The notes under the pieces are model-generated. The model worked only from the letters and a program-made list of their open reading frames with translations, was not told the DNA's origin and made no database searches. Shown here piece by piece: positions 8,636 to 61,700 of a DNA stretch of 64,000 nt (position 1 is the stretch's first letter; each line of letters starts with the position of its first letter). Source of the stretch: Elusimicrobiota bacterium (GTDB taxonomy: Bacteria; Elusimicrobiota; Elusimicrobia; UBA1565); NCBI GenBank assembly GCA_043827405.1, contig JBDRPD010000053.1:20826-84825 (forward strand). The letters are read 5' to 3'. The position numbers and the translations under genes are program-made.

Positions 8636-9846
8636 GCGCCGCGGACAGCGAACGCCTGCGCGCCGATTTCCCCTCGCTGCAGGCCGCCGGCGGAAAGCGC
8701 CCCGTCTATTTCGACAACGCCTGCACCACGCTGCGGCCGCTGCAGGTCGTCGAGGAGATGAACGAGTACTACCTGCGCCATCCCTCCTGCCACAAGCGTT
8801 CGGTGCACGCCTTCGGCCGGATGACCGACGAGAAGTTCGAGGCCGCGCGCGAAGCCGCGCGCGCCTTCATCAACGCGGAGCATGCCTCCGAGATCATATT
8901 CACCCGCAACACGACCGAGGGGATCAACCTGATCGCCGGCTCCTACCCGTTCAAGGAAGGCGACACGGTGGTGACCACCGATCTCGAACACAATTCCAAC
9001 CTGATCCCGTGGCGCGCGCTGGGGGAACGCAAGGGCGTCCGGCTCACGACGGTGCCGGTGGGACCGGACGGGAATTTCGACCTGGACGCATTGCGCGCCG
9101 CGCTGCGCGGCGGCGTCAAGCTGGTCAGCGTGTTTTCGCATTCCCACGTCCTGGGAATCGCCGCGCCGCTGGCCGAGATCGCGCGCCTGACGCACGCGGC
9201 CGGCGGCAAGCTGCTGGTGGACGCGGCGCAGACGCCGCTGCATGAAAAGCTGGACGTGCGCGCGCTCGCCGCCGATTTCCTCGTTCTCTCCTTCCACAAG
9301 ATGCTCGGGCCGTCGGGGATGGGCCTGCTTTACGGCCGGCGCGCGCTGCTGGAAGAGCTGCCGCAGTTTTTGACCGGCGGCGAGACCGTCGAGGACGTCG
9401 ACGACCGCGGCTATGTCCCCGCCGCGGTGCCGCACCGCTTCGAAGCCGGGCTGCAGAACTACGCCGGCGCCATGGGCGCGCACGCCGCGATCCGCTACCT
9501 CGACCGCGTCGGCTTTTGCCGCCGGGAGCACGAGATCGAGCTCAACGAAATCATCACCGAAGGCCTCGCCGGCCTGGACCGCTTCCGCCTGCTCGGCCCC
9601 CGCGACCCGCGGCGGCGCGGCTCGATCGTCAACTTTTACCTCGACGGCATGGATTCCGGCGAGCTGTCGATCCTCCTCGACAAGACCGAGAGCATAATGA
9701 CGCGCAGCGGCGTCCACTGCTGCCATGCCTGGTACCGCAAGTACCGCCTGCCGCCGACGCTGCGCGCCTCGCTGGCGTTCTACAATACGCGGGAAGAGGC
9801 GGAGCTCTTCGTCCGCACCCTGAAGAACGTCAGCGACTATTTCTGA
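8632..9846 (+). CDS. Cysteine desulfurase, class V aminotransferase (SufS/NifS/CsdA-like)
   Basis: Starts at the internal Met MSAADSERLRADFPSLQ... of ORF 8341..9846. FDNACTT near the N-terminus, a FSFHKMLGP motif (PLP-lysine region) and a C-terminal RSGVHCCHAW motif (catalytic Cys loop) are typical of SufS-type desulfurases. Confidence 0.8.
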   Translation: MSAADSERLRADFPSLQAAGGKRPVYFDNACTTLRPLQVVEEMNEYYLRHPSCHKRSVHAFGRMTDEKFEAAREAARAFINAEHASEIIFTRNTTEGINLIAGSYPFKEGDTVVTTDLEHNSNLIPWRALGERKGVRLTTVPVGPDGNFDLDALRAALRGGVKLVSVFSHSHVLGIAAPLAEIARLTHAAGGKLLVDAAQTPLHEKLDVRALAADFLVLSFHKMLGPSGMGLLYGRRALLEELPQFLTGGETVEDVDDRGYVPAAVPHRFEAGLQNYAGAMGAHAAIRYLDRVGFCRREHEIELNEIITEGLAGLDRFRLLGPRDPRRRGSIVNFYLDGMDSGELSILLDKTESIMTRSGVHCCHAWYRKYRLPPTLRASLAFYNTREEAELFVRTLKNVSDYF

Positions 9847-11033
9847 TTGCGCAGCAGGCGCGCGAGCTCGTCGGCGATGACCCGATGGCCGGCGGCGTTG
9901 GGATGGATGGTGTCGGAGTTCCGATCGACGAAAAGGTACTCGTCCGGGTGCCGGCCGAACGCCGCCGCCGCGTCCGCCAGCGGCACGCCGAGCTCGCGGC
10001 CGAGCTCTTCCATGGCCGCGTTGTAGCGGACGGCGTCGCGGGCGCAGCGGCGCGACTCCGCTTCCTTGACCCGGCGAAAATGCTCGGCGGCGTCCTTGCT
10101 CCGCCCCAGCCTGCGCGCGCACTCGCCCAGGTAGTAGTGCGCCCGGCCGAGATGAGGATCGGCTTCCAGAGCCTGGCGGAAGGCTTCGGCGGCGGCGCGG
10201 CAGTCGCCCTTGTCCATGAGCGTACGCCCCGCCCGCAGGCTGCCGCGGGCGAACTCCGGATCGGCGGGATCTTTTCCCCGCGGCAGGTTCACCGGCATCT
10301 TGACGAAGACCGGCTCGGCGCCGCGCTCGCGGACCAGTTCGACCAGGCGCTTGAGGTTGGCGCGATAATCTTCCAGCGATACGCGCACCTCGCCGGGGCA
10401 AGCCGTCTTTGCGCCGCGCCGCAGCAGCCGCCGCAATAGCCGATACAAGGCCAGCCGCGACACCGCGCCGCGCGCCGCCGTCAGCGCCCCCGGCGCCGGC
10501 CGCAGCGCCTTATCCGGCCCGCCGCCGCTGCGAAAGAAGCGGTAGGAGTCGACGTCGTTGATGACGTAGGCGATAGTGACGATGTCCGGGCGCAGCCGGT
10601 CCCAGTAGCGCTTGAGAAAGCCGAGCCCTTGGTGGGTCGAGTAGCCGATGATCCCGCCGTTGACGACCTCGGCCGCCAGCAGCTCCCGCAGAAGGGCCGC
10701 GTACGTCGCGTCCGCGGGCACGCCCCAGCCGAAAGTCGGCGAGGCGCCCAAGGCCAGGACACGCACCCGGCCGGACCCGCGCGGCGCCGCGGCCAGCCGC
10801 AGCCCCAGGTCGTCGGTGGCCACCGCGGTGCCGAAGAAGTCCGCGCGCAGGCGGGGCTTCTGCGTCCACAGCAGCTCGGAATCCGGCCGCAGCAGCGCCA
10901 GGATATTGTCCAGCCGCGTCGCGGGGACGACGCAGCGCAGCCCCAGCTCCGCCGCGGCGAGCGCCAGCACGCCGACGAGACAGGCGGCGAGGCGGAGGAT
11001 GTACGGACCGGCAACTGGGGGTTTGCGCGGCAT
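9837..11033 (-). CDS. SGNH/GDSL-family hydrolase with N-terminal membrane anchor and embedded TPR-like repeat
   Basis: 398 aa. N-terminal TM (YILRLAACLVGVLALAAA). The block VLALGASPTFGWG is in SGNH block-I position. A TPR-like stretch (AAEAFRQALEADPHLGRAHYYLGECARRLGRSKDAAEHF). C-terminal DTIHPNAAGHRVIA (DxxH catalytic dyad). Divergent from the CCP array. Confidence 0.6.
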   Translation of the reverse strand: MPRKPPVAGPYILRLAACLVGVLALAAAELGLRCVVPATRLDNILALLRPDSELLWTQKPRLRADFFGTAVATDDLGLRLAAAPRGSGRVRVLALGASPTFGWGVPADATYAALLRELLAAEVVNGGIIGYSTHQGLGFLKRYWDRLRPDIVTIAYVINDVDSYRFFRSGGGPDKALRPAPGALTAARGAVSRLALYRLLRRLLRRGAKTACPGEVRVSLEDYRANLKRLVELVRERGAEPVFVKMPVNLPRGKDPADPEFARGSLRAGRTLMDKGDCRAAAEAFRQALEADPHLGRAHYYLGECARRLGRSKDAAEHFRRVKEAESRRCARDAVRYNAAMEELGRELGVPLADAAAAFGRHPDEYLFVDRNSDTIHPNAAGHRVIADELARLLRNQK

Positions 11034-34933: not shown

Positions 34934-35365
34934 CTACTCTTTCTTCTTGAGCTTCATGCCGCACTTGGGGCATTTGCCCGGCGCATGCCCTTTATGGCAG
35001 CCCATCGGGCAGACGTAAACCTGGCCCGGCTTCTTGTCCTTTTTCTTGAGCAAGCAGCTCTTGCAGGTGCATCCTTCCTTGCAGCCGCTCTTGGCGTAGG
35101 CGGCCTGAATCTTCTCGACCACCGCCTTGTCCTTGGACGTGATGCGGATAATGATACCGTCGGCGGTATTTTCGAACTTGGTCTCAGCGCCCTTTATCGA
35201 CATAGGGCAGACATGAGCGTCCTTCTTGACGAGCTTCCCGTCTTTCGCGGCGGCATGCGCTTCTCCCACGCCGCAGGAACCGCAATGGGACCATGACGCT
35301 CCCGGGGCGCACAGCAGCGCCGCGGCCAAACCGGCGGCGATCCAAAGTCCTTGATATTTTTTCAT
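34934..35365 (-). CDS. Secreted small metal-binding protein with heavy-metal-binding-domain (YxCPM...GKCPxCGM) motifs
   Basis: 143 aa. Signal peptide MKKYQGLWIAAGLAAALLCAPGASWS. Motifs HVCPMSIKG and YVCPMGCHKGHAPGKCPKCGMKLKKKE match the HMBD (YTCPMHPE...CPxCGM) pattern of Cu/Ag/Zn resistance proteins. Also GCKEGCTCKSC. Convergent with paralog 8 with only an 8-bp gap. GC content is visibly lower than the flanks. Confidence 0.65.
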   Translation of the reverse strand: MKKYQGLWIAAGLAAALLCAPGASWSHCGSCGVGEAHAAAKDGKLVKKDAHVCPMSIKGAETKFENTADGIIIRITSKDKAVVEKIQAAYAKSGCKEGCTCKSCLLKKKDKKPGQVYVCPMGCHKGHAPGKCPKCGMKLKKKE

Positions 35366-35450
35366 GATGAGCCTCTTTGGTGAAGAATCAAATCCAGTAC
35401 AGAATAGACGAAGTCTTTCAACGCAAGCTTAACACGGTCTTAATTCCTTC

Positions 35451-36173
35451 TCAACAACACCCCTTGTCCGAGCATCCCTCATCCGTACACCCTTTATCCG
35501 AGCACCCCTCATCCGTACATCCGCACCCTTTATCCGCGCATCCATGCCCCGAGCCTGCGGGCGGACGAACGGCGATAAAAATCGGACAGAGCCCGTCCGC
35601 GGTCTTTTCGCCGGCATGGACTTCCTTCATCTTCACCGTCTCCGGCCGGTCGATGACCGCGCCGCGGCCCCGCCAGTCGATCTTCTGCAGCACCGCCTCC
35701 ACATGTTCGGACAAGCCGCGGATGACGAGCTTGAGGGTCGGCGAGGCGTGCTCGCTCTGGTAGCGCTCGAGCGCGATTCCCAGCCGCAGCATCCCGGCGA
35801 CGGCCCGGTCTTTCTCCGCGGCGCTCAAACCGTAATGCCCGAGCTGATTTTCCAGCGTCTGGAGAGCTTCCCCCTCGAGATCGAGCTTAAGCTCCTTGCT
35901 GCGCTCGCCCGCGGTTATTTTCACCGCGTCTTTGGGCGTCATGCCGGTCAAAGTAAAAACGTCGCCGAGGTCCTTGAAGGGAACTTCGCTGACGTCGAGA
36001 AAGACCAGGCGGCAGTTGCCGTTGATCGCGGTAAACAGATCGGTCGTATAGTTGAAACAGCCGATAACGGCATTGGCCAGAAAGCCGTCCACGTCTTTCT
36101 CCGGCTTCGCTTCCCAATCTTTTCCGATCAGCTCTTGCAAAACGGAAACCGGTATCTTCCCGACCACTGCCAT
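35451..36173 (-). CDS. Hypothetical protein with C-terminal Cys-rich tandem repeats (GC[AGST]DKGC / DEGCSDKGC), possible metal-binding protein
   Basis: Real start probably MAVVGKIPVSVLQEL (ATG at 36171-36173) within ORF 35451..36296. The C-terminus GSGHGCADKGCGCTDEGCSDKGCTDEGCSDKGCC is encoded by a ~27-30 bp tandem nucleotide repeat. Confidence 0.55.
   Translation of the reverse strand: MAVVGKIPVSVLQELIGKDWEAKPEKDVDGFLANAVIGCFNYTTDLFTAINGNCRLVFLDVSEVPFKDLGDVFTLTGMTPKDAVKITAGERSKELKLDLEGEALQTLENQLGHYGLSAAEKDRAVAGMLRLGIALERYQSEHASPTLKLVIRGLSEHVEAVLQKIDWRGRGAVIDRPETVKMKEVHAGEKTADGLCPIFIAVRPPAGSGHGCADKGCGCTDEGCSDKGCTDEGCSDKGCC
35455..35545. repeat. Tandem ~27-30 bp direct repeat (about 2.5-3 units) inside the coding sequence, encoding DEGCSDKGC-type repeats
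   Basis: ccctcatccgtacaccctttatccgagcac / ccctcatccgtacatccgcaccctttatccgcgcatcc read directly on the + strand. Confidence 0.6.
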
Positions 36174-36253
36174 AAGCCCCTCCCGGACGCAAGAGTTCCT
36201 CCTTCGCGTCGGCACACTCTTTGTATCATATCTTCCGGCCGCATTCCGAAGCC

Positions 36254-39200
36254 ATGCCCAGCATTCACGCCGCCATAACGGCCTTTCTGTTCGCACTGCT
36301 CGCGCCCCGCACCCTGGCGGCGGAGAGCGCGCTTATCGGCACGCTGGAGGGCCATACCGATCACGCCGTCAACGCCTATTTCACGCCGGACGGGAAACAG
36401 TTGCTGACCATCGGCGAAGACCATACGGTCCGCCGCTGGGACGCCGCCTCCGGCGCCGAGCTCGTCGTCCACAGATTCCACGATCCCGTTTCAGGCCTGT
36501 TCTATAAGGACGGCTACAAAGCCGCGGCCTTCCCGGAGCCCCACCGCCTGCAGATATGGAACCTCGCGACGGAAAAGCTGTTCGCCGACATCGAGGACTA
36601 CAACGGCAAGATCCGGACTTTTCTTCTCGCACCGGATGGGCGCACCGCCGCGCTGCTGTCCTGGCAGGGAGAGGTTTCGCTGTGGGACCTGGACAAGCTC
36701 GACAGAATTGCGGTCCTCAACAGCGACCAGAAAGAGCGCGCCTGGTCCATTTCCCTCTCCCCGGACGGCCGGCACCTGTTCGCCGGCGCCGGCGAGAAGG
36801 CGCATGTCATCATGCGGTGGGAGCTCGGCACCGGCAAGCTGCTGAGCTCCTGGACCGGACATACCAACAAAGTCCGCGACATCGCCTTCACTCCCGACGG
36901 CGCCAAGGCGCTCTCCGCCAGCGCGGACCATACGCTGCGGCTATGGGACATTTCCTCCGGCAAGACGCTGGCCGTCTGGAAGGGGCATACCAGCCAGATC
37001 TGGGCCGTCGACATCTCTCCCGACGGGAAGCGCGCGATATCGGCCGGCGCGGACTACGCCGTACGGCTATGGGAGGTGGAGACCGGACGTCAGCTGGCGG
37101 CCTGGTGGGGACATCAGGCCATCGTCCGCGACGTCACGTTCTCCCCCGACGGCACGCTGGCGGCCTCCGCGAGCGAGGACCATACGGTAAAACTCTGGAA
37201 CGTCGAGGGACACGCGCGCATCGCCGCCTACCCCATACCTGAGCCGCCGCCCCCGCTCCCCGCGGGGCCGGGCACGCCCGAAGAGCGGCTGGGGCGCATG
37301 CTGTTTTTTGATCAGCGGCTTTCCGGCGACACCCACCGGGACTGCGCCGTCTGCCACGCTCCCGAACTGGCCTTCGCGGACGGCCTGGAGCTGTCTTTGG
37401 GCGCGCAGAACGTGCTGTATTTCCGCAACACCCCTTCGCTCTACAACCTCGACGAGCTGAAGCTCCTTTATTGGGACGGCCGCTTTCCCGCCGACGACCT
37501 GCCATCGCTGATCCGCGATCACATTTCCGAGGCGCATTTCATGAACGCCGACGGCCGCCTTATCGTGGAAAAGCTGCGCCAGGCGCCCGGCTATATCCGC
37601 GCCTTCCAGGAGGTATACGGCGAGGAGCCTTCCTATACCAAGGTCCTCGCCGCGCTGACCGCCTTCGTCCGTTCCATCAAATCCGGCGCGTCGCCCTATG
37701 ACCGGTATTTGGCCGGCGACGGCGACGCCCTGTCTCCCGCCGCCCGTCGAGGCTACGAGCTGTTCCTGGGCGATGCCGGATGCGCCCCATGCCATAGCGG
37801 CCCCATGCTCACGGACGGCAAGCTGCACGACCGCGGAGTGCCGGAGAACGAAGAGATCTACGATTCGCCCATGCGCCTCATATCGCTGCGCCGCTTCTTC
37901 AAGCTCCTCGGCGTAGAGGACTACGCCAATCTCCACCGCGACGTGGGCTTCTACGCTATATCGAAAAAACAGGAGGACATGGGCCGGTTCAGGACGCCCA
38001 GCCTGCGTGAAGTCGCACGTACGGCGCCGTACATGCATAACGGCCTGCTGCCTTCGCTCGATGACGCCGTTGCCCACCAGAATCCGCGGCTGAGCCCGAG
38101 CGAGCGAAAAGACATCACGGCTTTCCTGGAATCTCTCACCAGCGCCACCACCGCCTATGTCTCCCCGCCGCTTCCGCGTTATGAACTGCGCCGTCGTGCC
38201 GCGGACAAGAGAACCGCGGCCGCCGCCGCTGCGGCAGAGGAACCGAAGTCCGCCTTTCCGCCCCTGGGCCCGCTGCCCCCGCCGCCGGTCCCTGCGGACA
38301 ACCCGCTGACCGAGGAAAAAATCGAGCTCGGCAAGTTCCTGTACTTCGACAAACGTCTCTCGGGCAACGGCTACACGTCCTGCGACACCTGCCACGAGCC
38401 GCCCAAAGGCTGGGCCGACGGCAGCGACCTGGCGCAAGGCTACCAGGGCACGCTGGACTGGCGCCATGCGCAGACCTTGCTCAACGCCGCCTATTACACG
38501 AAGCTGGAATGGGACGGCGGCCAGCCGACCCTCGAGCAGCAGGCCAACGGAGCGATCACCTCGAATATTTCGGCCAACGGCGATCCGGAGATGATCGAGG
38601 AGCGGCTCGCCGCCACCCCGGAGTACGTCGCCATGTTCAAAAAGGCCTTCGGCGCCAAGCGCCCGACCTACGAGAACGCGCTGAAGGCGATCGCATCTTT
38701 TGTCCGCGCCGTTCCGGTATCGCGCAACGTGCCGTTCGACAAGGGCGCTCTTTCCCCCGCCGCCCGGCGCGGCCGCAAGCTGTTCGAAGGCAAAGCCGGC
38801 TGCATCCAGTGCCACAACGGGCCGCTGGTCTCCGCTCAGGGATTTCACGCCACCGGCGTCCCCCGCAACCCCGGCCTGGACCACCTGCTGCTGCGGCAGA
38901 TCACCGTGCGCTTTATGCATTCCAGCCGCGGCGTGCCGGAGGACATCTACCGGAACGCGGACTCCGATCCGGGCCTATACCTCAACACCCTGCGCCAGGA
39001 GGATATCGGTAAATTTCGCGCCCCGAGCCTGCGCGAGCTAAAGTACACCGCGCCGTATATGCATAACGGCATATTCCCGACGCTGGAAGCGGTGGTGGAC
39101 TTTTACAATAAGGGCGGAGGCGAGACGCCCAACAAGACCCCGCTCCTTAAACCCCTGGAGCTCAACGCCGGCGAGAAACAGGACCTGATCGCCTTTCTGC

Positions 39201-39331
39201 TGTCTCTCAGCGGCGACGAAGTGCTGATCACGCCGCCGCTCATTCCGCGCTTCCACCCCGGTCATGGAGACGACGATGACGAGAAGGAGGACCCGCATGC
39301 GGGCCGGGACGATGACCATAATGCGCATTGA
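36254..39331 (+). CDS. WD40 / tandem di-heme cytochrome c peroxidase fusion protein, paralog 9 (divergent propeller, acidic His-rich C-terminal tail)
   Basis: Start at MPSIHAAITAFLFALLAPRTLAAE (signal peptide) within ORF 36221..39331. Fewer canonical WD repeats at the N-terminus. CAVCH, CAPCH, CDTCH, CIQCH and 2x PYMHNG. C-terminal tail HPGHGDDDDEKEDPHAGRDDDHNAH. Confidence 0.85.
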   Translation: MPSIHAAITAFLFALLAPRTLAAESALIGTLEGHTDHAVNAYFTPDGKQLLTIGEDHTVRRWDAASGAELVVHRFHDPVSGLFYKDGYKAAAFPEPHRLQIWNLATEKLFADIEDYNGKIRTFLLAPDGRTAALLSWQGEVSLWDLDKLDRIAVLNSDQKERAWSISLSPDGRHLFAGAGEKAHVIMRWELGTGKLLSSWTGHTNKVRDIAFTPDGAKALSASADHTLRLWDISSGKTLAVWKGHTSQIWAVDISPDGKRAISAGADYAVRLWEVETGRQLAAWWGHQAIVRDVTFSPDGTLAASASEDHTVKLWNVEGHARIAAYPIPEPPPPLPAGPGTPEERLGRMLFFDQRLSGDTHRDCAVCHAPELAFADGLELSLGAQNVLYFRNTPSLYNLDELKLLYWDGRFPADDLPSLIRDHISEAHFMNADGRLIVEKLRQAPGYIRAFQEVYGEEPSYTKVLAALTAFVRSIKSGASPYDRYLAGDGDALSPAARRGYELFLGDAGCAPCHSGPMLTDGKLHDRGVPENEEIYDSPMRLISLRRFFKLLGVEDYANLHRDVGFYAISKKQEDMGRFRTPSLREVARTAPYMHNGLLPSLDDAVAHQNPRLSPSERKDITAFLESLTSATTAYVSPPLPRYELRRRAADKRTAAAAAAAEEPKSAFPPLGPLPPPPVPADNPLTEEKIELGKFLYFDKRLSGNGYTSCDTCHEPPKGWADGSDLAQGYQGTLDWRHAQTLLNAAYYTKLEWDGGQPTLEQQANGAITSNISANGDPEMIEERLAATPEYVAMFKKAFGAKRPTYENALKAIASFVRAVPVSRNVPFDKGALSPAARRGRKLFEGKAGCIQCHNGPLVSAQGFHATGVPRNPGLDHLLLRQITVRFMHSSRGVPEDIYRNADSDPGLYLNTLRQEDIGKFRAPSLRELKYTAPYMHNGIFPTLEAVVDFYNKGGGETPNKTPLLKPLELNAGEKQDLIAFLLSLSGDEVLITPPLIPRFHPGHGDDDDEKEDPHAGRDDDHNAH

Positions 39332-42329
39332 GCGCTGGGGCCTCCTGGCCTGCGCGCTGCTTCTCTCCCGGCCCGCCGCCGCTGCCAGCGGACCGCTGCT
39401 CGCCGTCTTGGAAGGCCATACCGACCTGGTCCGGCAGGCGGTCTTCACCCCGGACGGCACCCAGGTCCTGTCGATCGGCAACGACCATGCGGTGCGCCGA
39501 TGGGACGCCGCCGCAGGCCGCGAGCTCTCGGCCTTTCTCTCCGCGGACCCTGTGCTGAGGGTATTCGCGCAAGGAGCGCCGAAATTCGCCGCCTACACCC
39601 CGGATTACGCCATCATCATGCGCGATCTGACCTCGGGCAAGCGCCTGGCCGCTCTGCGCCGGCTCAACGACGAAACGGAAGCCGTCGCGCTGACCCCGGA
39701 CGGCCGCACCGCGGCGACGCTCTCCTACGAGGGCGAGGTCATCCTTTGGGATCTCAAGAAGGAACGCCGGCTCGCGGCGCCGGAAGCCAACGGCTCCGCC
39801 ATCGCCTTTTCACCGGACGGCGGCAGCCTGCTGGTCGGCAAGCGCGACCATACCCTGCAGCTCTATTCTCTGCCGGGAGAACCGGCGGCGCCGGCCTGGC
39901 GCGGCCACCGCGGCGAGATCCTTGCCGTCGCCTTCTCGCCGGACGGCGGAAAAGCGCTCTCCGGCGCGCGCGACAACACCCTCCGCCTCTGGGACGTGAA
40001 GACCGGAGCGGCGCTCGGCGTCTGGCGCGGCCATACGAGCCACGTCCTCGCTTTGGCGTTCTCCCCGGACGGGCGCCGGGCGCTTTCCGGCGGAGCGGAC
40101 TACACCGTCCGGCTATGGGACGCCGCGGCGGGCCGGGAGCTCGCCGTCTGGTGGGGACACCAGGGAGCGGTCCGCGACGTGGCTTTCTCTCCCGACGGAA
40201 AGCGCGCCGTTTCCGCCGGCGAGGACCGGAGGCTCATGCTGTGGGACGCACGGGACGGCGCGGTGAGCAGCCGGCCCGGCGCCGGCGAGCAGGCGGCTCT
40301 TCCCCCCGGTCCGGGAACGCCCGAAGAACGGCTCGGCCGCCTGCTGTTTTTCGACAAGCGGCTGTCCGGCGACGAGGACGCCGACTGCGCCTTGTGCCAT
40401 AACCCCGCCACAGCCTATACCGACGGCCTGCCGCTGGCCGAAAGCTATACCGCGCTCTACTTCCGCAATACGCCGACCCTGCTCAATCTCGCGGCGCAAA
40501 AGCACCTGTACTGGGACGGCCGCTTCCCGGCCGACGACCTGCCCTCGCTTATCCGCGACCACATATCCGAAGCGCATTTCATGAACGCCGACGGCCGCCT
40601 GATCGTGGAAAAACTGCGCCAGGCGCCCGGCTACGTGCACGCCTTCAAGGAAGTCTACGGCGGCGAGCCGTCTTACTCCAGGATTCTTGCAGCTCTCAGC
40701 GCCTTCGTCCGGTCGCTGAAATCCGGCGCCCCGGCGGACGTTCTGACGCCCGCGGCGCGGCGCGGCCGGGACCTGTTCAACGGCGAGGCCGGCTGCGCCG
40801 GCTGTCACGCCGGCTCCGGCTTCACCGACGGCAAGCTGCACGCCCGCAAGGCTCCGCCCAATAAAGAAATTCTCCGGGAACCGCTGCGCCGCATCGCCCT
40901 GCGGCGTTTTTGCAAGGTCCTGGGCATCGAGAACTATGCCGAGGTACGCGAGGACCCGGGTCTCTACGCCGTCACCAAGCGCCGGGAGGATAGCGGCAAG
41001 TTCAAAACGCCCGGCCTGCGGGAAGTCGCCCGCACCGCTCCCTACATGCACAACGGCTCGATCCGCAAGCTGGCAGACGCGGTCAAGCATGAAAATCCCC
41101 GGCTCAGCCGGCGCGAGCGAAAGGACATCGTCGCTTTTCTCGAAACGCTGTCCAGCGAGACGCCGCGATTTGATCCGCCGCTCGTGCCGCGCTACGCGGT
41201 CCAACCCCGGGACCTCCCCCCCGCGGCGGGAGCGGACTCGACCTGGGACGACGCCCCGGCGCCCGCACCCATCCGGGCCCGGGACTACCCGCCGCTTGGC
41301 CCGCTCCCGCCGGTCCCGGTCCCGGAGGACAACCCGCTCACCGACGAGAAAGTCCGGCTGGGAAAGCAGCTGTTTTTCGACGTGCGCCTGTCCGGCTCCC
41401 TGAGCCGTTCCTGCGCCTTCTGCCATGAGCCGGCGCTGGGCTGGGGAGACGGCAGCGACCTCTCGCAGGGCTACCGCCGGATGCTGCACTGGCGCAACTC
41501 CCAGACGCTGTTAAACGCCGCCTATTACAGCAAGCTGGAATGGGACGGCGCCTGGCCGAGCCTGGAGGAGCAGGCGCGCGGAGCGATCACCTCAAACATC
41601 AACGGCAACGGCGACCCGGCCACGATCGAGGAGCGCTTGGCCGAATCGCCGGAGTATGTGCGGATGTTCAAGCGGGCTTTCGGCGTGCAGCGGCCGAACT
41701 TCGAGAGCGTACTCAAGGCGCTCGCCTCCTTCCAGCGGGCGATCCCGATCTCGCGCAACGTCCCGTTCGATCAAGGAGCCCTCTCTCCCGCCGCGCGGCG
41801 CGGCCGCGAGCTGTTTGCCGGCAAGGCGGGCTGCATCGCCTGCCATAATGGACCGCTGGCCTCCGATCAGGGCTACCATGCCACCGGCGTCCCGCGCAAT
41901 CCGGCATTTGATCACATCGCCCTGCGCCGGATCGCCCTGCGCTTCCAGCATGTGACCCGGGGAGTTCCTGAGGAGGTGTTCCGGCGCGCCGAAACGGATC
42001 CGGGGCTGTATCTAAATACGCTGCGCAAGGAAGATAGCGGGAAGTTCCGGACCCCGAGCCTGCGTGAGCTCAAGTATACCGCGCCCTATATGCATAACGG
42101 CGTATTCCCGACCCTGCAGAAAGTAATAGACTTTTACGACCAGGGCGGCGGAACGGCGGACAATAAAAGCCCGCTGCTCAGATCGCTGGGGCTGACCGCG
42201 GCGGAGAAGCTGGACCTGATCGCCTTTCTGGAAGCGCTCTCGGGCGAGGAAATCATGGTCACCGCGCCGGACGCGCTGGGACCGCACATAACGGCGACGG
42301 GACGCGCCGCGGATACGCCGCACCATTAA
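39321..42329 (+). CDS. WD40 / tandem di-heme cytochrome c peroxidase fusion protein, paralog 10
   Basis: ORF 39264..42329. The probable start is MRIERWGLLACALLLSRPAAAASGP (signal peptide) at about 39312-39321, overlapping the end of paralog 9 by about 10-20 nt. CALCH, CAGCH, CAFCH, CIACH and 2x PYMHNG. Confidence 0.85.
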   Translation: MRIERWGLLACALLLSRPAAAASGPLLAVLEGHTDLVRQAVFTPDGTQVLSIGNDHAVRRWDAAAGRELSAFLSADPVLRVFAQGAPKFAAYTPDYAIIMRDLTSGKRLAALRRLNDETEAVALTPDGRTAATLSYEGEVILWDLKKERRLAAPEANGSAIAFSPDGGSLLVGKRDHTLQLYSLPGEPAAPAWRGHRGEILAVAFSPDGGKALSGARDNTLRLWDVKTGAALGVWRGHTSHVLALAFSPDGRRALSGGADYTVRLWDAAAGRELAVWWGHQGAVRDVAFSPDGKRAVSAGEDRRLMLWDARDGAVSSRPGAGEQAALPPGPGTPEERLGRLLFFDKRLSGDEDADCALCHNPATAYTDGLPLAESYTALYFRNTPTLLNLAAQKHLYWDGRFPADDLPSLIRDHISEAHFMNADGRLIVEKLRQAPGYVHAFKEVYGGEPSYSRILAALSAFVRSLKSGAPADVLTPAARRGRDLFNGEAGCAGCHAGSGFTDGKLHARKAPPNKEILREPLRRIALRRFCKVLGIENYAEVREDPGLYAVTKRREDSGKFKTPGLREVARTAPYMHNGSIRKLADAVKHENPRLSRRERKDIVAFLETLSSETPRFDPPLVPRYAVQPRDLPPAAGADSTWDDAPAPAPIRARDYPPLGPLPPVPVPEDNPLTDEKVRLGKQLFFDVRLSGSLSRSCAFCHEPALGWGDGSDLSQGYRRMLHWRNSQTLLNAAYYSKLEWDGAWPSLEEQARGAITSNINGNGDPATIEERLAESPEYVRMFKRAFGVQRPNFESVLKALASFQRAIPISRNVPFDQGALSPAARRGRELFAGKAGCIACHNGPLASDQGYHATGVPRNPAFDHIALRRIALRFQHVTRGVPEEVFRRAETDPGLYLNTLRKEDSGKFRTPSLRELKYTAPYMHNGVFPTLQKVIDFYDQGGGTADNKSPLLRSLGLTAAEKLDLIAFLEALSGEEIMVTAPDALGPHITATGRAADTPHH

Positions 42330-42333
42330 AACT

Positions 42334-42531
42334 ATGACCGAGAAAAAGCACAAGCCGCTGGGACACCGCCTCAAGGAGAACCTGGAGGTCCTGAAGGAAA
42401 TATACGCCCTGATCAAGCTGCATAAGCGCTGGGCGCTTCTGCCCGTCTTTCTCGTCCTGGCCGTGCTCAGCCTGTTTATCACTTTGGCGGGCGGCAGCTC
42501 CGTCCTCCCGGCGATCTACGCGCTGTTCTAA
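42334..42531 (+). CDS. DUF5989-like small membrane protein (65 aa)
   Basis: MTEKKHKPLGHRLKENLEVLKEIYALIKLHKRWALLPVFLVLAVLSLFITLAGGSSVLPAIYALF. A basic N-terminus, one TM helix and a C-terminal ...AP.IY.LF match the DUF5989 family pattern. Starts 4 nt after paralog 10, and its stop overlaps the ATG of the next gene (TAATG). Confidence 0.5.
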   Translation: MTEKKHKPLGHRLKENLEVLKEIYALIKLHKRWALLPVFLVLAVLSLFITLAGGSSVLPAIYALF

Positions 42532-43505
42532 TGGTCCGGCTCCTGCTTTTTGCCGCGGCCGCTTTCGCTTTCGCCGCCGAAACAGACAGCGCCCTAATAC
42601 GATCCTTCGCCGGCCACCGGGACCTCGTTAACAGCGTCGCCGTGTCGCATGATGGACGGAGGATGGCATCCGGCAGCGCCGACCTCACCATCCGGCTGTG
42701 GGACATCGCGACCGGCAAGCAGCTATCGCTGTGGAAAGGGCATACGGTCGAAGTGAACATGGTCGTTTTCTTCCCCGACGACAAGAAGCTGCTGTCCGCC
42801 GGCGCCGACAACAACATCTACCTGTGGGACGCCGCGACGGGAAAAAATCTCGCGATCTGGCACGGCCATACCGACGACGTCAATGCTATCGCCGTCTCAC
42901 CCGACGGCACCAAAGCGCTTTCCGGCGGCCACGACGGCTACGTGCGGCTATGGGACACGGCGACCGGGAAACTGCTCGCCTCCTGGCTGGTCGACAACTT
43001 CGTCTACGCCGTCGCCTTCTCTCCCGACGGCAGCAAAGCGCTTTCCGGACAATGGGACAAGACGCTCAAGCTGTGGGACGTCGCGACCGGGAAGCTCCTC
43101 GCCACCTGGAGGGGCCATACCGACAAGGTCTACGCCGTCGACTTTACTCCCGACGGGAAAACCGCGCTGTCGAGCAGCAAGGACAAGACCGCGCGGGTAT
43201 GGGATGTCGCCAGCGGCCGGACGCTGCATATCCTCCGGCAGCCGCGCGGCATCGACGCCGCGGCCTTCTCCCCCGACGGCAGCAGGATACTGACCGGCAA
43301 CCGGGACTGGACGCTGACGCTCTGGGACACGGCCAGCGGAAAAGAGCTGCGCGCGTTCCACGGCCACCAAGACTACATCTACAGCGTCGCCTTTCTTCCC
43401 GACGGCCGCCGCGCCGTTACCGCCAGCGTCGACCGGACCATCAAGCTGTGGGACCTCGATGCGGCGTTCGTGAAGACGGATAAAGAAACGAACGGCTATC
43501 GCTGA
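42531..43505 (+). CDS. Secreted stand-alone WD40-repeat beta-propeller protein (7 repeats, no heme domain)
   Basis: 324 aa. Signal peptide MVRLLLFAAAAFAFAAETD. Seven canonical WD40 repeats (GHRDLVNSVAVSHDG...IRLWD etc.). No CxxCH. Confidence 0.85.
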   Translation: MVRLLLFAAAAFAFAAETDSALIRSFAGHRDLVNSVAVSHDGRRMASGSADLTIRLWDIATGKQLSLWKGHTVEVNMVVFFPDDKKLLSAGADNNIYLWDAATGKNLAIWHGHTDDVNAIAVSPDGTKALSGGHDGYVRLWDTATGKLLASWLVDNFVYAVAFSPDGSKALSGQWDKTLKLWDVATGKLLATWRGHTDKVYAVDFTPDGKTALSSSKDKTARVWDVASGRTLHILRQPRGIDAAAFSPDGSRILTGNRDWTLTLWDTASGKELRAFHGHQDYIYSVAFLPDGRRAVTASVDRTIKLWDLDAAFVKTDKETNGYR

Positions 43506-45910: not shown

Positions 45911-48900
45911 ATGACAGCACCCCAACTCGTTCGCGTCGCATGCGCCATCGCCATCACCCTCGCACCCGCCGCCGCGTTCGCGAATCCGGGCGACGGCTCC
46001 TACGAGCTCACGGCGCAGATCAGCAAGACCGCTTTCAAAGTAACGGGAAAGAAGTGGTATGCGAAGACCCTCCAGTTTTCGGCCGACGGCGGCATCCTGA
46101 TCGCCTCCGGCGCCAACTCGGAAGACAACGTTTTCCGCTTTTGGGACGTCGCGTCGGGGAAGCTCGTGGCCGAGATTCCCGAGATGCAGAACGACAGCAA
46201 GCTGGCGGTCACGCCCGACGGCCAGTTCCTAGTGCTGCGCTCGCCGACGACGCTCGTGCTCGCCCGCGCGGCCACCGGCAAGATCATCCAACGGGTCGTC
46301 ATCGATCCCAAGGCGTGGTCCCTTTCCACCACCCGGCTCGCCCTAACCAAGGACGGCGGCACCGTCGCGACGCAGCACGGCGCGAAGGTCAGATCGTGGG
46401 ATGTCGCATCCGGCAAGGAACGCAAGCCGCTCGCCGCCGCCAGCGGCAAAAAGGACAGCGAGGTGACGGCGCTGGCCTTCACGCCGGACGGCGGCACTTT
46501 GATCGGCGGCATCAACGATGACGACCGGCTGCACTTCTGGGACATGCGGACGCGGAAACTGCGCCTGGCCGCGCCCGAGCCGTGCGCGCTCCACGTGACG
46601 CAGATGGCCGTCAGCGCCGACGGTGCGCGGCTGATCACCGTAAACCTCAAAGGCCTGCTCTGCGCATGGGATCCGCGGACGCTGGCCATGGAAGGAGTGC
46701 TGACGCGGGACGTCCGCGTCGAGAGACCGCTATTGATGTCCCCGGACGGAAACACCTTGCTCTATTTCGACGCCAACCATGCGTTCACGCTTTGGGATAT
46801 CGAAAAGGAGCGAAAGAAGGCTTCTTTTGCCACCTCGTACGGCACGAACTTCGCCGTGTCGTCCGACTGGAAAACCGCCGCCGTAATAGGCCCCATCGGC
46901 GACAAGAGCGTCCGCGTCTTCGATGTCGCCTCCGGAGCGCTGCGCGGAGTCTTCAGCTCGGAGCCCGAGACGATCGATTTCACACTCGACGGCAAGACCC
47001 TGATAACCGGCGGCTACACCTCGAACCTTTGGGAGGTATCCACGGGCCGCCGGCGCGAGTTCTCAAGCGGCAACTCCTACTACTCGCTGGCCATCGCTCC
47101 GGACGGCAAATCGTTCGCGGCCTGCGAGCTTTACGGGACCGCCCATTTCTACGGCATCACCGCCGCCCCGACCCCGCAGGTCCCCGCGCCGACAGCCCCC
47201 GCCCTTCTCAGCGCCGAGCACGCTTTCAGCGAGCCGTCCGGCGACGGCGTTCTCGCGGCGGGCGAAAGCGGCACTCTGCGCGTGACCCTCCGCAACACGG
47301 GACGGGGCGCCGCCCATGCCGTCCGTGTAATACCGCGCCTGGAACCCTTCGCCCCCGGGATTCAGCTCTCGCCGGAGATCGTGCTGCAGACTCTCCCGCC
47401 GGCGGCGACCGCCGCGCTCGACATCGTGGTCCGCGCCACGCCCGAACTCGCATCCGGCGAGGCGAAGATCGTCGTGTCCGTGACCGAAGGCAACGGCTTC
47501 GACGCCCCCCCGTTCGCGGCGGCCGTCAAGACGCGGGGCTTCGCTCCCCCCCGCCTGGGCATCGCCGGCGTCAGCCTCGCCGGCGGCGGCAGCGTCAAGA
47601 AGCTGGCCACCAACCGCGTCGCCGTCACCATCCGGAATTCCGGAGAAGGCCCGGCGCAGGGCGTTCGCGCCGCGCTGGCGGTCGCCGATCCCAACATCTT
47701 CCTCGAATCCAAAGAGCCGGTCGCGCTCGGGGACCTGGAGCCGGGCGGCTCCAAGGAGGCGGAGTTCGGCTTCTTTATCAACAACCGCTACAGCGGAGCC
47801 AAAGAGCTTCCGATCACGGTCGGCATCGAAGAGGCGGCGGGCAAGTACGGGGTGAAGCCCGTTTCCCTGCGCCTCGCCTTGGATGAGCCGGCGCCCGACT
47901 GGTCGCGCGCCGCCGCGGCATCCGGCGCAGAGTTCAAGCTCAAGCGCATGACTCTTCTGCGCGGCGACGATGAGCTGCGCTACCCGGTCAGCTCGCGCGA
48001 CGGCAAGTGGGCGGCGGCCGGCAGCGGCGGCGGCTCGATCCTCGTATGGGACACGGCGACCGGCGAGCGCCGGGCGGCGCTGAAGATCAAGCTCGGCAAG
48101 CATTCGGAGCTCAAGCCCCAGGCTTTCACGCCGGACGGGGACGGCCTGTACGCGATCGCGGACAACAACGTCTACCTCCTGGACCTGGTCAATGAGCGCA
48201 GCCGGCCGTTCTGGAGCGGAACCCGCACCCGCTACGAGACGCGGGAGACCGGCAGCGCCTTCCAGCCGATCGCGACATTTTCCTACAACTTACTTGAAGC
48301 CGCGGCGCTCTCGCCCGACGGGCGAATGCTGGCGCTGGGCGGCTGCTACGAGAAAGACGAGGAATCGATCCTGCTCGACGTCGAGACCAAGGCCGAACGC
48401 GTGCTGCCCAGCGGCAGCGGCTGCGTGCGGCACGCCGTTTTCTCCCCGAAAGGGCGCCACCTCGCGCTCGGCCGCGAAAGCGGCGGCATGGTCGAAGTAT
48501 GGGATCCCGCCGCCGCCAAGCGCGTCAGCTCCTGGACGACCGGCAAGGACGCCGCGCGCGCTTTGGCCTTTTCCCCCGACGGGCAAACCCTGGCGACCAG
48601 CTTCGGCGAAAAAGACATCGCGCTGTGGGACCCGGCTACGGGCGCCCGCAAGGGCGTGCTCAAAGGAGACGGCTATGCCATCGGTCATCTGGCCTATTCC
48701 CCGGACGGCAGCTGGCTCGTTTCCACCTCCTACAACAATATGACGATATGGGATGCGCCCGCCTCCGCGCCCAAGGAAAAGCTCTCCACCGGCTATTACC
48801 GCGCCTTCACCTTCCTGCCGGACGGCACCTTGGCCGCGGCCAACGCGAAATCGCTGATCCTATACAGCCTCTACGGCGGCAAAAAAGCGGCACCCAAGCC

Positions 48901-50473
48901 GAAGGCCCCGGCCCGCCTGGAATTGGACGTCTCCTTTCGCGAGCCGTCCGGCAACCGGGCCTTGGACGCCGGCGAGGAAGGCGAGCTCGTCGTGAAGATC
49001 GCCAACCGCGGCAAGGGGAGCGCCTACGCGGTAAGGCTTCTCGCCGCGCTCGAGAAGCCGGCTCCGGGGCTGCGGCTCCCCCAGCCCCTGCTGGCGGGCG
49101 AGATCGCTCCGGGCAAATCGGTGACGCAGACATTGACGCTGCGCGCGACCGCCGGCATCGGCGCGCAGACGGTCACGCTTAAGATCGAAGCGCGTGAAGG
49201 CAACGGGTTCGACGCCGCTCCCCAGGTCATCGAGTTCCAGTCCCGCGCGCTGGAGGCGCCGCGACTGGAGATCGCCGGCCTGTCGCTGGCGGGCCAAGGC
49301 GTGGTCAAGGTCAACATGGTCAATAAGCTGACGGTCAAGGTGCGCAACAGCGGCCGCGGCGCGGCGCGGGACGTCAAGGCCGAGCTTGCGCTCGGCAGCC
49401 CGGAGATATTCCCTTCCGGCGAGACCGCGTACGCGCTGGGCACGCTCGCGCCCGGACAGACGGCGAAGGCGGACTTCGAGTTCTTCGTCAACGCCCGCTT
49501 CAAGGGCAAGAAGCTGCCGCTCGCGCTGAGCCTCAGCGAGTCGTTCGGACGCTTCGGCGTGCGGGAACAGCCGCTGCACCTGGCATTGGACGAGGCGCCT
49601 TCAGCGGCGCTGATTCAAGTACAGGAGCGCGAGCGCGAGGGAGCGCCGGCCGCGCCGGCGACGGCGGACGTGGACGCGCCCCCGCATACGGAGACCGCGC
49701 GTGATCCGGCGGCCTACGCCGTCGTCGTCGGCGTCGAGAAGTACCGGGAGAGCGGCCTCCCCGCCGTGGACTACGCGGCGCGCGACGCCCAGGCCGTGCA
49801 CGCTTACTTGACGCAGTCCATGGGGTTCGACTCCCGCAATGTCATTTTGCTGCAGAACGAGAGCGCGGCGAAGACCGATCTGGAAAAGTACCTCGGCGCG
49901 TGGCTCAACAACCGCGTGACGAAGAAGAGCCGGGTATTCGTATATTTTGCCGGCCACGGCGCCCCCGACCCCGCCACCGGAGAGGGCTACCTCATCCCGT
50001 ACGACGGTGACCCATCTTATACGAAGGAGACCGCCTATCCGCTCAAGAAGCTCTACGCGTCGCTGGCGAGCCTGCCCGCCGAGGAGGTGACCGTGGTCCT
50101 CGACTCCTGCTTCTCGGGCCGCGGCAAGCGGTCGGTCATCGCCAAGGGCGCGCGGCCGCTGGTGCTGACCAAATCCGAGAAGACGGCCGGGGAAAACACC
50201 GTCGTACTCAGCGCCGCCGGCGCCGACCAGATCAGCACCTTTCAACAGGACGCCGAGCACGGCCTGCTGACGTATTATCTGCTGCGCGGCCTGCGCGGGG
50301 ACGCCGACGCGGACGGCAACGGCCGCATCACGACCGGCGAGCTCTTCGCCTACACGCAGCCGGCGGTGGAGCGGGAGGCGCGGCTGCAGAACGTATCCCA
50401 GACGCCGACGCTGGACCCCGCGCTCGACGCGCTCGGGCGCCGCGCGAACCATGTCTGGATACGCCTGAAGTGA
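45911..50473 (+). CDS. Giant secreted protein (1520 aa): 2x [beta-propeller (WD-like) + two CARDB/DUF11-like Ig domains] + C-terminal caspase-like (peptidase C14) domain
   Basis: Signal peptide MTAPQLVRVACAIAITLAPAAAFA. WD-like repeats (FWDVASGK, SWDVASGK, FWDMRTRK; later WDTATGE, VWDPAAAK, LWDPATGA, TIWDAPA). Four CARDB-like segments (GTLRVTLRNTGRGAAHAVRV; VAVTIRNSGEGPAQGVRA; ELVVKIANRGKGSAYAVRL; LTVKVRNSGRGAARDVKA). C-terminal caspase domain: YAVVVGVEKY...VFVYFAGHGA...VTVVLDSCFSG (His/Cys dyad). SD ggaggt 6 nt upstream. Confidence 0.8.
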   Translation: MTAPQLVRVACAIAITLAPAAAFANPGDGSYELTAQISKTAFKVTGKKWYAKTLQFSADGGILIASGANSEDNVFRFWDVASGKLVAEIPEMQNDSKLAVTPDGQFLVLRSPTTLVLARAATGKIIQRVVIDPKAWSLSTTRLALTKDGGTVATQHGAKVRSWDVASGKERKPLAAASGKKDSEVTALAFTPDGGTLIGGINDDDRLHFWDMRTRKLRLAAPEPCALHVTQMAVSADGARLITVNLKGLLCAWDPRTLAMEGVLTRDVRVERPLLMSPDGNTLLYFDANHAFTLWDIEKERKKASFATSYGTNFAVSSDWKTAAVIGPIGDKSVRVFDVASGALRGVFSSEPETIDFTLDGKTLITGGYTSNLWEVSTGRRREFSSGNSYYSLAIAPDGKSFAACELYGTAHFYGITAAPTPQVPAPTAPALLSAEHAFSEPSGDGVLAAGESGTLRVTLRNTGRGAAHAVRVIPRLEPFAPGIQLSPEIVLQTLPPAATAALDIVVRATPELASGEAKIVVSVTEGNGFDAPPFAAAVKTRGFAPPRLGIAGVSLAGGGSVKKLATNRVAVTIRNSGEGPAQGVRAALAVADPNIFLESKEPVALGDLEPGGSKEAEFGFFINNRYSGAKELPITVGIEEAAGKYGVKPVSLRLALDEPAPDWSRAAAASGAEFKLKRMTLLRGDDELRYPVSSRDGKWAAAGSGGGSILVWDTATGERRAALKIKLGKHSELKPQAFTPDGDGLYAIADNNVYLLDLVNERSRPFWSGTRTRYETRETGSAFQPIATFSYNLLEAAALSPDGRMLALGGCYEKDEESILLDVETKAERVLPSGSGCVRHAVFSPKGRHLALGRESGGMVEVWDPAAAKRVSSWTTGKDAARALAFSPDGQTLATSFGEKDIALWDPATGARKGVLKGDGYAIGHLAYSPDGSWLVSTSYNNMTIWDAPASAPKEKLSTGYYRAFTFLPDGTLAAANAKSLILYSLYGGKKAAPKPKAPARLELDVSFREPSGNRALDAGEEGELVVKIANRGKGSAYAVRLLAALEKPAPGLRLPQPLLAGEIAPGKSVTQTLTLRATAGIGAQTVTLKIEAREGNGFDAAPQVIEFQSRALEAPRLEIAGLSLAGQGVVKVNMVNKLTVKVRNSGRGAARDVKAELALGSPEIFPSGETAYALGTLAPGQTAKADFEFFVNARFKGKKLPLALSLSESFGRFGVREQPLHLALDEAPSAALIQVQEREREGAPAAPATADVDAPPHTETARDPAAYAVVVGVEKYRESGLPAVDYAARDAQAVHAYLTQSMGFDSRNVILLQNESAAKTDLEKYLGAWLNNRVTKKSRVFVYFAGHGAPDPATGEGYLIPYDGDPSYTKETAYPLKKLYASLASLPAEEVTVVLDSCFSGRGKRSVIAKGARPLVLTKSEKTAGENTVVLSAAGADQISTFQQDAEHGLLTYYLLRGLRGDADADGNGRITTGELFAYTQPAVEREARLQNVSQTPTLDPALDALGRRANHVWIRLK

Positions 50474-52766: not shown

Positions 52767-53449
52767 CCCGCCGCTGCCAGCCGCTGCAGCAGCGCGCGCT
52801 GCGCCGGGTGCCAGGCGCATGCGGGCCGGGCCGCGACGATCATACTCTCCGCCTCGGCGACATCCTTGGCCACGCCGCGCAGCAGCAGCACCGCCGCCGC
52901 CAGAGCCGCCGATCGCCCATGACCGTTAGCGCAGTGGATGAATACGCCCCCCTCAGCCGACGCCGCCTGGCGTGCGAGCTCCATGAACGCGCCTTCCTCC
53001 GGCACAAAGGCATCAAGAGTCGGCAGTGACTTATACCCGCGGCGCGGCGCGTATTTAAGCCGGGGGAACTCGCTGGTCATATCGATAATTAATGTCACCG
53101 CCTCCGGGAGCTCCCTTTCGTAAGCGCGCCGCCCTAAAAACAAACCGGGAACGATCTCGTCCAGCACGTTTTCTCGTGAGAAAAATATCTGCGCGTGCCA
53201 GGTCGCCCAATTGATGAGCAGAAAGGGCAGCATGAGGACAACGATCCACCAGCGCATGGTGCCGTCATCGCGCTTGCCGAATACCCGTCCTGCCAAACCG
53301 AAATAAGCGCTGCCGACGGCCAGGCAGTTGGCGGCGGGCCACAGCATCAGCTGCTTCCAGCCGCCGCCGTCAAGCGACCAATAGACAAGCAGGGCGCCGA
53401 TCGAGAGGAAGGCGGCGGCTATCAGTTGGTGGGGGCGCTTGCGGCGCAT
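52757..53449 (-). CDS. Membrane-anchored dual-specificity/tyrosine phosphatase-like protein (CX5R)
   Basis: 230 aa. Three N-terminal hydrophobic helices. The P-loop VFIHCANGHGRSAA matches HCxxGxxR(S/T) of DUSP/PTP-type phosphatases (also PTPMT1/lipid-phosphatase-like). Confidence 0.7.
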   Translation of the reverse strand: MRRKRPHQLIAAAFLSIGALLVYWSLDGGGWKQLMLWPAANCLAVGSAYFGLAGRVFGKRDDGTMRWWIVVLMLPFLLINWATWHAQIFFSRENVLDEIVPGLFLGRRAYERELPEAVTLIIDMTSEFPRLKYAPRRGYKSLPTLDAFVPEEGAFMELARQAASAEGGVFIHCANGHGRSAALAAAVLLLRGVAKDVAEAESMIVAARPACAWHPAQRALLQRLAAAGCK

Positions 53450-53460
53450 GCTTTACACCC

Positions 53461-55586: not shown

Positions 55587-55595
55587 CGTTAAAGC

Positions 55596-58348: not shown

Positions 58349-58404
58349 CGGTGAGAGAGTATTTTACTATAGCCCTCACCGACGGGCCGTGTCAATGAGG
58401 GCTT
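58349..58404 (-). terminator. Structured intergenic hairpin(s) between the DmpA gene and the first SGNH paralog
   Basis: Inverted repeats tcggtgagag-N16-ccctcaccga and gccctca-N17-tgagggc. There is no clear U-run, so this could be a terminator or an attenuator/processing site. Confidence 0.3.
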
Positions 58405-61556: not shown

Positions 61557-61700
61557 CAGGTTGTGTATTGTACTACGTGTTGAGCCCAAAATGGTTCCTA
61601 CCGGGCATTGGCGCCGCGGACGGATATTGACCAACACGGGCGTTTTTGATATCAGAGATACTCCGGACCCTTATCAACCTAAAACCCTCAACCCAAAACC

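Follow-up and report, generated by a model that had tools for sequence, protein, structure and literature searches.

Two small genes behind a WD40-peroxidase array

The DNA considered here is a stretch of 64,000 nucleotides from an Elusimicrobiota bacterium (assembly GCA_043827405.1, contig JBDRPD010000053.1), hereafter called the window. It contains an array of ten genes for proteins of ~1000 aa, each with a WD40 domain, two CCP_MauG domains and four CxxCH motifs. The last of these genes, paralog 10, is followed on the same strand by a gene for a 65-aa membrane microprotein of the DUF5989 family and by a gene for a stand-alone WD40 propeller of 324 aa. These two genes, their relation to the array and their relation to the SGNH-fold proteins encoded nearby are the subject of this analysis (Table 1).

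A preliminary description of the locus, made from the sequence, had placed the DUF5989 start 4 nt after paralog 10 and its stop in a TAATG overlap with the propeller start; both junctions were found as described, with AACT as the intervening 4 nt. The same gap occurs at locus L010, a relative with 95% (DUF5989) and 84% (propeller) identity; it widens to 22 nt at L086 and 72 nt at L088, and the TAATG overlap is common to the window, L010, L086 and L087. Against L010, the ratio of nonsynonymous to synonymous substitutions comes to 0.03 (DUF5989) and 0.17 (propeller), indicating purifying selection on both, and thus both open reading frames (ORFs) are real genes rather than chance ones. At its far end the propeller gene is convergent with an SGNH gene, the 3' ends overlapping by 10 nt. 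A promoter and terminator scan around the two genes gave nothing above the shuffled background.

Table 1. Window coordinates of the genes and sequence features discussed in the text
Feature	Position	Strand	Basis or remark
DUF5989 microprotein, 65 aa	42334..42531	+	Pfam PF19451 match
Stand-alone WD40 propeller, 324 aa, seven blades	42531..43505	+	PF00400
Predicted transmembrane helix of DUF5989, W33-G54	42430..42495	+	hydrophobic stretch WALLPVFLVLAVLSLFITLAGG
DUF5989 C-terminal hexapeptide A60-I-Y62-A-L-F65-COOH	42511..42528	+	candidate acyl-shuttle motif
Predicted Sec signal peptide of propeller, MVRLLLFAAAAFAFA followed by AETD	42531..42575	+	sequence pattern
Paralog 10/DUF5989 junction	42327..42336	+	TAA (42327-42329), AACT, ATG at 42334
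TAATG stop/start overlap, DUF5989 to propeller	42529..42533	+	TAA 42529-42531 shares its last A with ATG
Membrane-anchored SGNH/GDSL protein, 460 aa	43496..44878	-	Pfam Lipase_GDSL_2
WD40-peroxidase array, ten genes, ~31 kb	11093-42329		
Paralog 10, WD40 + two di-haem peroxidase domains (CCP_MauG)	39264..42329	+	last of the ten array genes
SGNH+TPR protein	9837..11033	-	divergent from first array gene, 59-nt spacer
Three further SGNH paralogs	54189-58348		
s62 small membrane protein	7256-7444	+	DUF5989 companion
DUF7411 PP-loop ATPase	7434-8264	+	DUF5989 companion
s117 CCG-motif membrane protein	8273-8635	+	DUF5989 companion
SufS-like pyridoxal phosphate enzyme, ATGA overlap	8632-9846	+	DUF5989 companion

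The DUF5989 protein and its SGNH module

The assignment of the 65-aa protein to DUF5989, proposed earlier from its sequence pattern, was borne out by the Pfam profile PF19451 (50.1 bits against a cut-off of 27, E 2.8e-13, profile positions 2-49 of 49), and the protein is 100% identical to NCBI MFH2203272.1, named 'DUF5989 family protein [Elusimicrobiota bacterium]'. Its N-terminal segment is rich in K and R, a single predicted transmembrane helix follows, and the C-terminal tail is invariant. The mean net charge among homologues is +2.4 on the N side and 0.0 in the C tail, which contains neither K nor R; by the positive-inside rule, these averages thus predict an orientation with the N-terminus inside and the C-terminus outside (N-in/C-out).

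The extreme C-terminus is the most conserved feature of the family, and the motif is always terminal. P(-7), Y(-4) and F(-1) occur in every one of 50 distinct homologues taken from the loci, and I(-5) in 49. A subtype ending in ...LPAIYALF, to which the window protein belongs, adjoins SGNH genes, and a subtype ending in ...APFIYTLF always comes after a carbamoyltransferase and SxtJ; all of the best 120 listed members of the carbamoyltransferase type end in F[IV]Y[TA]LF. When 149 diverse representatives were drawn from the 1,327 or more DUF5989 clusters (50% identity), x[IVLM]YxxF formed the end of 142 and FxYxxF the end of 105, with intermediates such as FIYALF. The background frequency is low, since among 5,359 six-frame ORFs of the same loci only 2 unrelated ones end in the x[IVLM]YxxF pattern.

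A tyrosine in this position has a published parallel. Acyl-tyrosine shuttles have been demonstrated only recently, in DltX and in MBOATs including PatA (PMC12148441, PMC13653941). Its motif, FXYXXF, ends both the 49-aa membrane microprotein DltX (FIYNEF) and the MBOAT NgPatA (FIYANF), and the motif tyrosine is first loaded with an acyl group, which then passes to the catalytic Ser of DltD or PatB, respectively, both SGNH proteins with an N-terminal anchor (PMC12148441, PMC13653941). The DltX tail also binds DltD, with a dissociation constant of ~2.4 uM (PMC12148441, PMC13653941), and other MBOAT/SGNH pathways are stated in one of these two papers to lack a DltX-like microprotein. The window tail, AIYALF, agrees with FXYXXF in the Tyr, the terminal Phe, the Ile and the spacing, and has Ala at position 1; it shares four of six residues with the NgPatA motif at the same distance from the C-terminal end. 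The endings of the sister subtype, typically FIYTLF, fit FXYXXF at every position in all 120 members.

The neighbourhood of DUF5989 was compared across 44 genome loci and 30 metagenome loci with DUF5989 homologues, plus contigs of close relatives, by mapping the window proteins onto six-frame ORFs with phmmer. The metagenome scan yielded nothing usable with the single 65-aa query; an alignment query returned the 30 loci, one of them from a close relative. Neighbours were counted within 10 kb of 56 distinct AIYALF-type homologues from outside the lineage of the window. An SGNH gene was found adjacent to DUF5989 in 42 and within range in 55, and in 39 it lay directly upstream on the same strand, often with 4-nt overlaps; 34 of these 39 partners have an N-terminal hydrophobic segment. 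Radical-SAM genes were present in 50 of the 56, s62 and DUF7411 in 42 each and a carbamoyltransferase with SxtJ in 15, in line with the earlier statement that DUF5989 accompanies SGNH-type or carbamoyltransferase genes. WD40 and peroxidase genes were both absent around all 56.

The module defined by these counts occurs in Halobacteriovorax, Omnitrophota, Elusimicrobiota, Planctomycetota, Myxococcota and others. It comprises one or two N-terminally anchored SGNH proteins (one often with TPR), DUF5989, a radical-SAM protein (often B12-binding), the ~60-aa s62 with an LPWRLR motif, DUF7411, the ~117-aa s117 with an N-terminal CCG, a SufS-like enzyme and, in some loci, a carbamoyltransferase with SxtJ. 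The window holds the same module genes, split by the array, with s62 to SGNH+TPR on one side and DUF5989 and the SGNH(-) gene on the other. At locus L009, whose DUF5989 is 74% identical, the order is DUF7411, s117, SufS-like, SGNH+TPR(-), DUF5989(+), SGNH(-), which is the gene order of the window with neither array nor propeller, and the SGNH+TPR orthologue is divergent from DUF5989 itself. Since L009 has the module without either, array and propeller are additions to an older module, and DUF5989 is part of the SGNH module on its flanks rather than of the array.

The SGNH protein convergent with the propeller has an N-terminal hydrophobic anchor, a GDS motif (Ser83) and a DxxH motif (His439), and the Ser, Asp and His are invariant in all five SGNH paralogs of the window. 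An AlphaFold2 model of this partner (predicted local distance difference test score 69) has an SGNH core with a helical insert. The preliminary description had SGNH paralogs following the propeller immediately; this applies to the one convergent gene, the other four being the more distant group of three downstream and the SGNH+TPR gene upstream of the array. That group of three lies in a possible minus-strand operon (52757-61637), together with a tandem D-Ala-D-Ala-ligase-like protein (707 aa), a Peptidase_S58/DmpA protein, a flavodoxin-like protein and a membrane protein that bears the HCxxGxxRS signature of phosphatases. A D-Ala esterase/amidase is among the members of the DmpA family, and a ligase and a DmpA-type peptidase beside SGNH genes suggest a Dlt-like flavour. 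Screening of the 44 DUF5989 genome loci of other phyla with the ligase and the DmpA protein did not reveal this combination.

Among the companions, DUF7411 has weak similarity to LarE/QueC and the SufS-like enzyme matches TIGR01979 with 384 bits; s62, DUF7411, s117 and the SufS-like enzyme may form the missing loading machinery or a sulfur-transfer step. A role of s62 as a ThiS- or DltC-like carrier was considered and rejected, as it is a hydrophobic small membrane protein with LPWRLR and no Gly-Gly end. In Halobacteriovorax marinus (L001/L014, 8207-10453), one protein of 748 aa, encoded convergently with DUF5989, combines a carbamoyltransferase with the SxtJ membrane domain, a fusion which tethers a cytoplasmic enzyme to the membrane. 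At L019, L020, L073 and L092, the DUF5989 modules are flanked by large polytopic proteins with weak matches to PMT_2 (GT-C glycosyltransferase) and by genes for Wzy_C and heptosyltransferases, and these neighbours point to an envelope glycan as the target.

The carbamoyltransferase-linked subtype has a parallel in saxitoxin biosynthesis, where sxtI (carbamoyltransferase, 1839 bp), sxtJ (405 bp), sxtK (165 bp, 54 aa) and sxtL (GDSL lipase, 1281 bp) are neighbours and sxtJ and sxtK have no assigned function (PMC2679770, PMC2885083). The triad of carbamoyltransferase, PF19588 SxtJ and 52-aa DUF5989 matches the sxt order and sizes. From the published gene order and sizes, together with the DUF5989-SxtJ synteny, we infer that SxtK is a member of PF19451; in a third large protein search the best 120 FIYTLF-type matches were all unnamed or called 'DUF5989', and none bore the source name SxtK. 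The window differs from this system in carrying the SGNH-linked subtype, with neither carbamoyltransferase nor SxtJ as neighbour. Outside cyanobacteria, moreover, the triad is found in lipopolysaccharide and glycan loci (Wzy_C, PMT_2, Glyco_transf_9, carbamoyl-phosphate synthase) and not in toxin clusters.

The free propeller and its lineage

In the 324-aa protein, PF00400 matches seven WD40 stretches (E 4.8e-71, 232.7 bits) and CxxCH is absent, so that the ORF, the profile match and the motif scan agree with its earlier description as a seven-repeat propeller with no haem domain. It had also been called secreted. What stands behind this is a signal-peptide-like N-terminus, MVRLLLFAAAAFAFA followed by AE, which is kept in the orthologues of L010 (MFRLLLLAAAACAAA) and L086 (MPAGALLFSLFFVAAPSSA); on this pattern, export by a Sec signal peptide is predicted. 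The two orthologues are 83.6% (L010) and 58% (L086) identical to the window protein. An exact-sequence look-up of the propeller in a protein collection found no entry, probably because a different start is called there.

According to the preliminary description, the free propeller was of the same type as the WD40 domain fused to the array peroxidases, and might serve as a regulator, a decoy or an assembly scaffold, or represent an ancestral unfused module. The resemblance is considerable, in that each consists of a signal peptide and a canonical WD40 propeller of seven blades, the genes share the direction of the operon and the proteins align collinearly (residues 21-311 against 19-312), and the free gene sits at the 3' end of the array with only 4-nt and 1-nt junctions. 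A first neighbour-joining (NJ) tree even placed the free propeller as sister to the fused clade. This placement, however, had 27% bootstrap support and fell to 5-12% once the sequences of L086 and L011 were added, whereas the free propeller grouped with its own orthologues (L010, L086) in 98% of replicates, and its sister group consisted of outside proteins in 55%. Identity to the ten fused propellers is 35-43%, compared with 39-61% among the fused ones themselves, which form a single clade in 63-76% of NJ bootstraps. Compared with the free propeller, seven unrelated WD40 proteins from the database outscore the fused ones (up to 49% identity, 270 against 244 bits), and the free propeller comes only 15th of 34 when ranked by a profile built from the ten fused ones. 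The arrangement in relatives also speaks against an unfused counterpart, since at L088 a fused gene is followed by DUF5989 and no free propeller, and at L011 the propeller comes before DUF5989. The preliminary description had itself named a similarity to the fused propellers no closer than to random WD40 proteins as refuting its claim, and this is what was found. The claim of a shared type is therefore not supported: by the sequence comparisons, the free propeller neither donated its fold to the array propellers nor split off or was shortened from one of them recently, and a role as their unfused counterpart is improbable. A recently truncated eleventh paralog was likewise rejected, because the protein has its own orthologue clade outside the fused clade.

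The co-occurrence check suggested earlier was extended to the relatives of the window by comparing nine loci, the window included, in which DUF5989 is at least 74% identical. A WD40 or WD40-peroxidase gene abuts DUF5989 in six of the nine. In the window, L010 and L086, DUF5989 has a peroxidase gene before it and a WD40 gene behind it. In L087 a divergent s62 precedes DUF5989, which is followed by WD40; L011 has WD40 before and an APH kinase behind DUF5989, and L088 has peroxidase before and SGNH(-) behind it. At L009, L056 and L089 no such gene stands beside DUF5989. Outside the lineage, none of 60 homologues (56 AIYALF-type and 4 FIYTLF-type) is abutted by a WD40 or WD40-peroxidase gene. The propeller is restricted to this Elusimicrobiota lineage. 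At L056 (DUF5989 80% identical), the 937 nt upstream of DUF5989 (positions 1-937) contain no ORF above 60 aa.

Adjacency of this kind could have arisen with no functional meaning, if array and propeller had landed in a permissive spot of the module, a divergent promoter region and a gene end, and were merely co-transcribed. The absence of WD40 and peroxidase genes near the 60 outside homologues and at three loci of the same lineage would fit this, as would the rearrangement of the locus among relatives. Against it, junctions of 1-72 nt are kept in differing arrangements among relatives with 77-95% identical DUF5989, and the propeller is under purifying selection; adjacency devoid of function is thus considered unlikely. 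Because WD40 adjoins DUF5989 in six of nine lineage loci and in none of 60 elsewhere, some lineage-specific link between the propeller or peroxidase genes and DUF5989 is likely.

Several other genes of the window were noted. Between paralogs 8 and 9, two unrelated minus-strand genes (34934-36296) break the array, and the GC fraction falls to 0.62; the product of one is secreted, 143 aa long and rich in Cys and His, and carries two CPM-type metal-binding-like motifs, while that of the other, of 281 aa, gave no Pfam match and has a Cys-rich repeat (CTDEGCSDKGC, two copies) in its C-terminal part. The longest ORFs of paralogs 9 (36221-39331) and 10 (39264-42329) overlap by 68 nt; these starts are probably called too far upstream, an internal Met just before the signal peptides being likelier. 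Downstream, a plus-strand gene (45911-50473) encodes a protein of 1520 aa whose start resembles a signal peptide and which contains two WD40 propellers, CARDB/NEW3 domains and, at the C-terminus, a caspase domain (Peptidase_C14); its propellers are only ~30% identical to the free propeller. It is followed by a 775-aa protein with a lipobox-like LLAAGC (50493-52820, minus strand), which was seen only in the window and the duplicate locus L008 and has no Pfam or NCBIfam match.

A candidate tyrosine shuttle

The resemblance of DUF5989 to DltX extends beyond the tail. Both are single-pass proteins of about 50 aa, with an invariant Tyr four residues from a terminal Phe and a C-terminus that is extracytoplasmic in DltX and predicted to be so in DUF5989, and both are encoded with an N-terminally anchored SGNH-fold protein, which in the case of DltD receives the acyl group. 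PatB, the partner of PatA in peptidoglycan O-acetylation, is likewise a periplasmic SGNH protein with an N-terminal anchor. The Dlt system differs in its MBOAT (DltB), adenylating enzyme (DltA) and carrier (DltC), all of which are missing from the DUF5989 module, where DUF5989 is accompanied instead by a carbamoyltransferase or by enzymes of the radical-SAM, PP-loop and SufS-like kinds. PatA carries the motif on the MBOAT itself, whereas here it is borne by a free microprotein and no MBOAT is present. The hosts of DUF5989, furthermore, are diderms or candidate phyla and not Firmicutes.

These likenesses suggest a mechanism in which DUF5989 would serve as the small membrane subunit of a module for envelope modification that is old and shared by many phyla; in this lineage, the 31-kb WD40-peroxidase array would have been placed before it and a secreted propeller behind it. 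In the predicted N-in/C-out orientation, the protein would expose a periplasmic tail, ...LPAIY62ALF-COOH, similar to the hexapeptide of DltX and PatA. Tyr62 may transiently carry an acyl or carbamoyl group. The flanking SGNH proteins, anchored in the membrane, would accept this group on their catalytic Ser and then modify an envelope polymer or lipid. The proposal that Tyr62 is a carrier was made because DUF5989 shares with DltX its size, single helix, predicted orientation and SGNH partner, in addition to the tail motif. The propeller, presumably exported and made together with DUF5989 by way of the TAATG overlap, is probably a lineage-specific periplasmic adaptor that would tie the module to the WD40-peroxidases or to a shared envelope target, a weaker proposal than the one for DUF5989. 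A DltX-like shuttle that works with no MBOAT, with array and propeller as additions of the lineage, is the best explanation of the locus as a whole, adopted tentatively and with slightly less than even confidence.

A number of observations weigh against it. Homology to DltX was not detected: hmmscan at E<=5 returned only DUF5989, and a profile search of PDB chains returned nothing relevant. The first motif position is Ala and not Phe in the subtype of the window. Searches of the window and of ten representative loci revealed neither an MBOAT or AT3 acyltransferase nor a carrier protein, and the flanking polytopic proteins give only weak PMT_2 matches. Some loci of the carbamoyltransferase type have no SGNH gene, and the DUF5989 gene of the window is not co-directional with one. 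A fold search with the model of the SGNH partner gave generic SGNH esterases as best matches, with PatB at rank 39 and DltD absent.

The main rival to a shuttle is a tail that acts non-covalently, in docking or regulation. DUF5989 would then be a non-catalytic small subunit that stabilises or regulates the SGNH protein or SxtJ, its tail serving as a docking peptide or active-site plug. The co-occurrence with SGNH genes, the translational coupling to them and the invariant tail fit this equally well; the loading enzyme was not found in the window or the ten representative loci, and the tail of DltX, as mentioned above, is itself a DltD-binding element. Such a role would leave aside that the invariant Tyr stands exactly at -4 with a terminal Phe, as in the proven carriers, and that the fusion of carbamoyltransferase and SxtJ beside the FIYTLF subtype suggests handover of a group at the membrane. 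A purely non-catalytic subunit is accordingly rated as possible, though on the unlikely side. The match between the tail and the acyl-shuttle motif is the most interesting outcome of this comparison of sequences, as a hypothesis and not as a demonstrated function.

The searchable literature yielded no mention of DUF5989 or DUF7411, and no free microprotein other than DltX in an SGNH acyl relay. It is conceivable, if doubtful, that DUF5989, with its 1,327 or more clusters at 50% identity and the SxtK-like ORFs beside carbamoyltransferase and SxtJ among its members, is a large unrecognised family of free tyrosine acyl- or carbamoyl-shuttle microproteins that work with no MBOAT. They would be loaded by SxtJ-tethered carbamoyltransferases or by a new membrane set (s62, s117, PP-loop ATPase, SufS-like and radical-SAM proteins), and in this lineage they would be coupled to periplasmic WD40 and WD40-di-haem-peroxidase proteins. 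If so, this would be a new route for modification of the envelope from outside the membrane. A shuttle function of DUF5989 would provide a testable role for a family with thousands of members in Omnitrophota, Elusimicrobiota, Planctomycetota, Bdellovibrionota and others, as well as a concrete hypothesis for the unexplained sxtJ and sxtK genes beside the saxitoxin carbamoyltransferase, and it would mean that acyl-tyrosine relays do not need an MBOAT.

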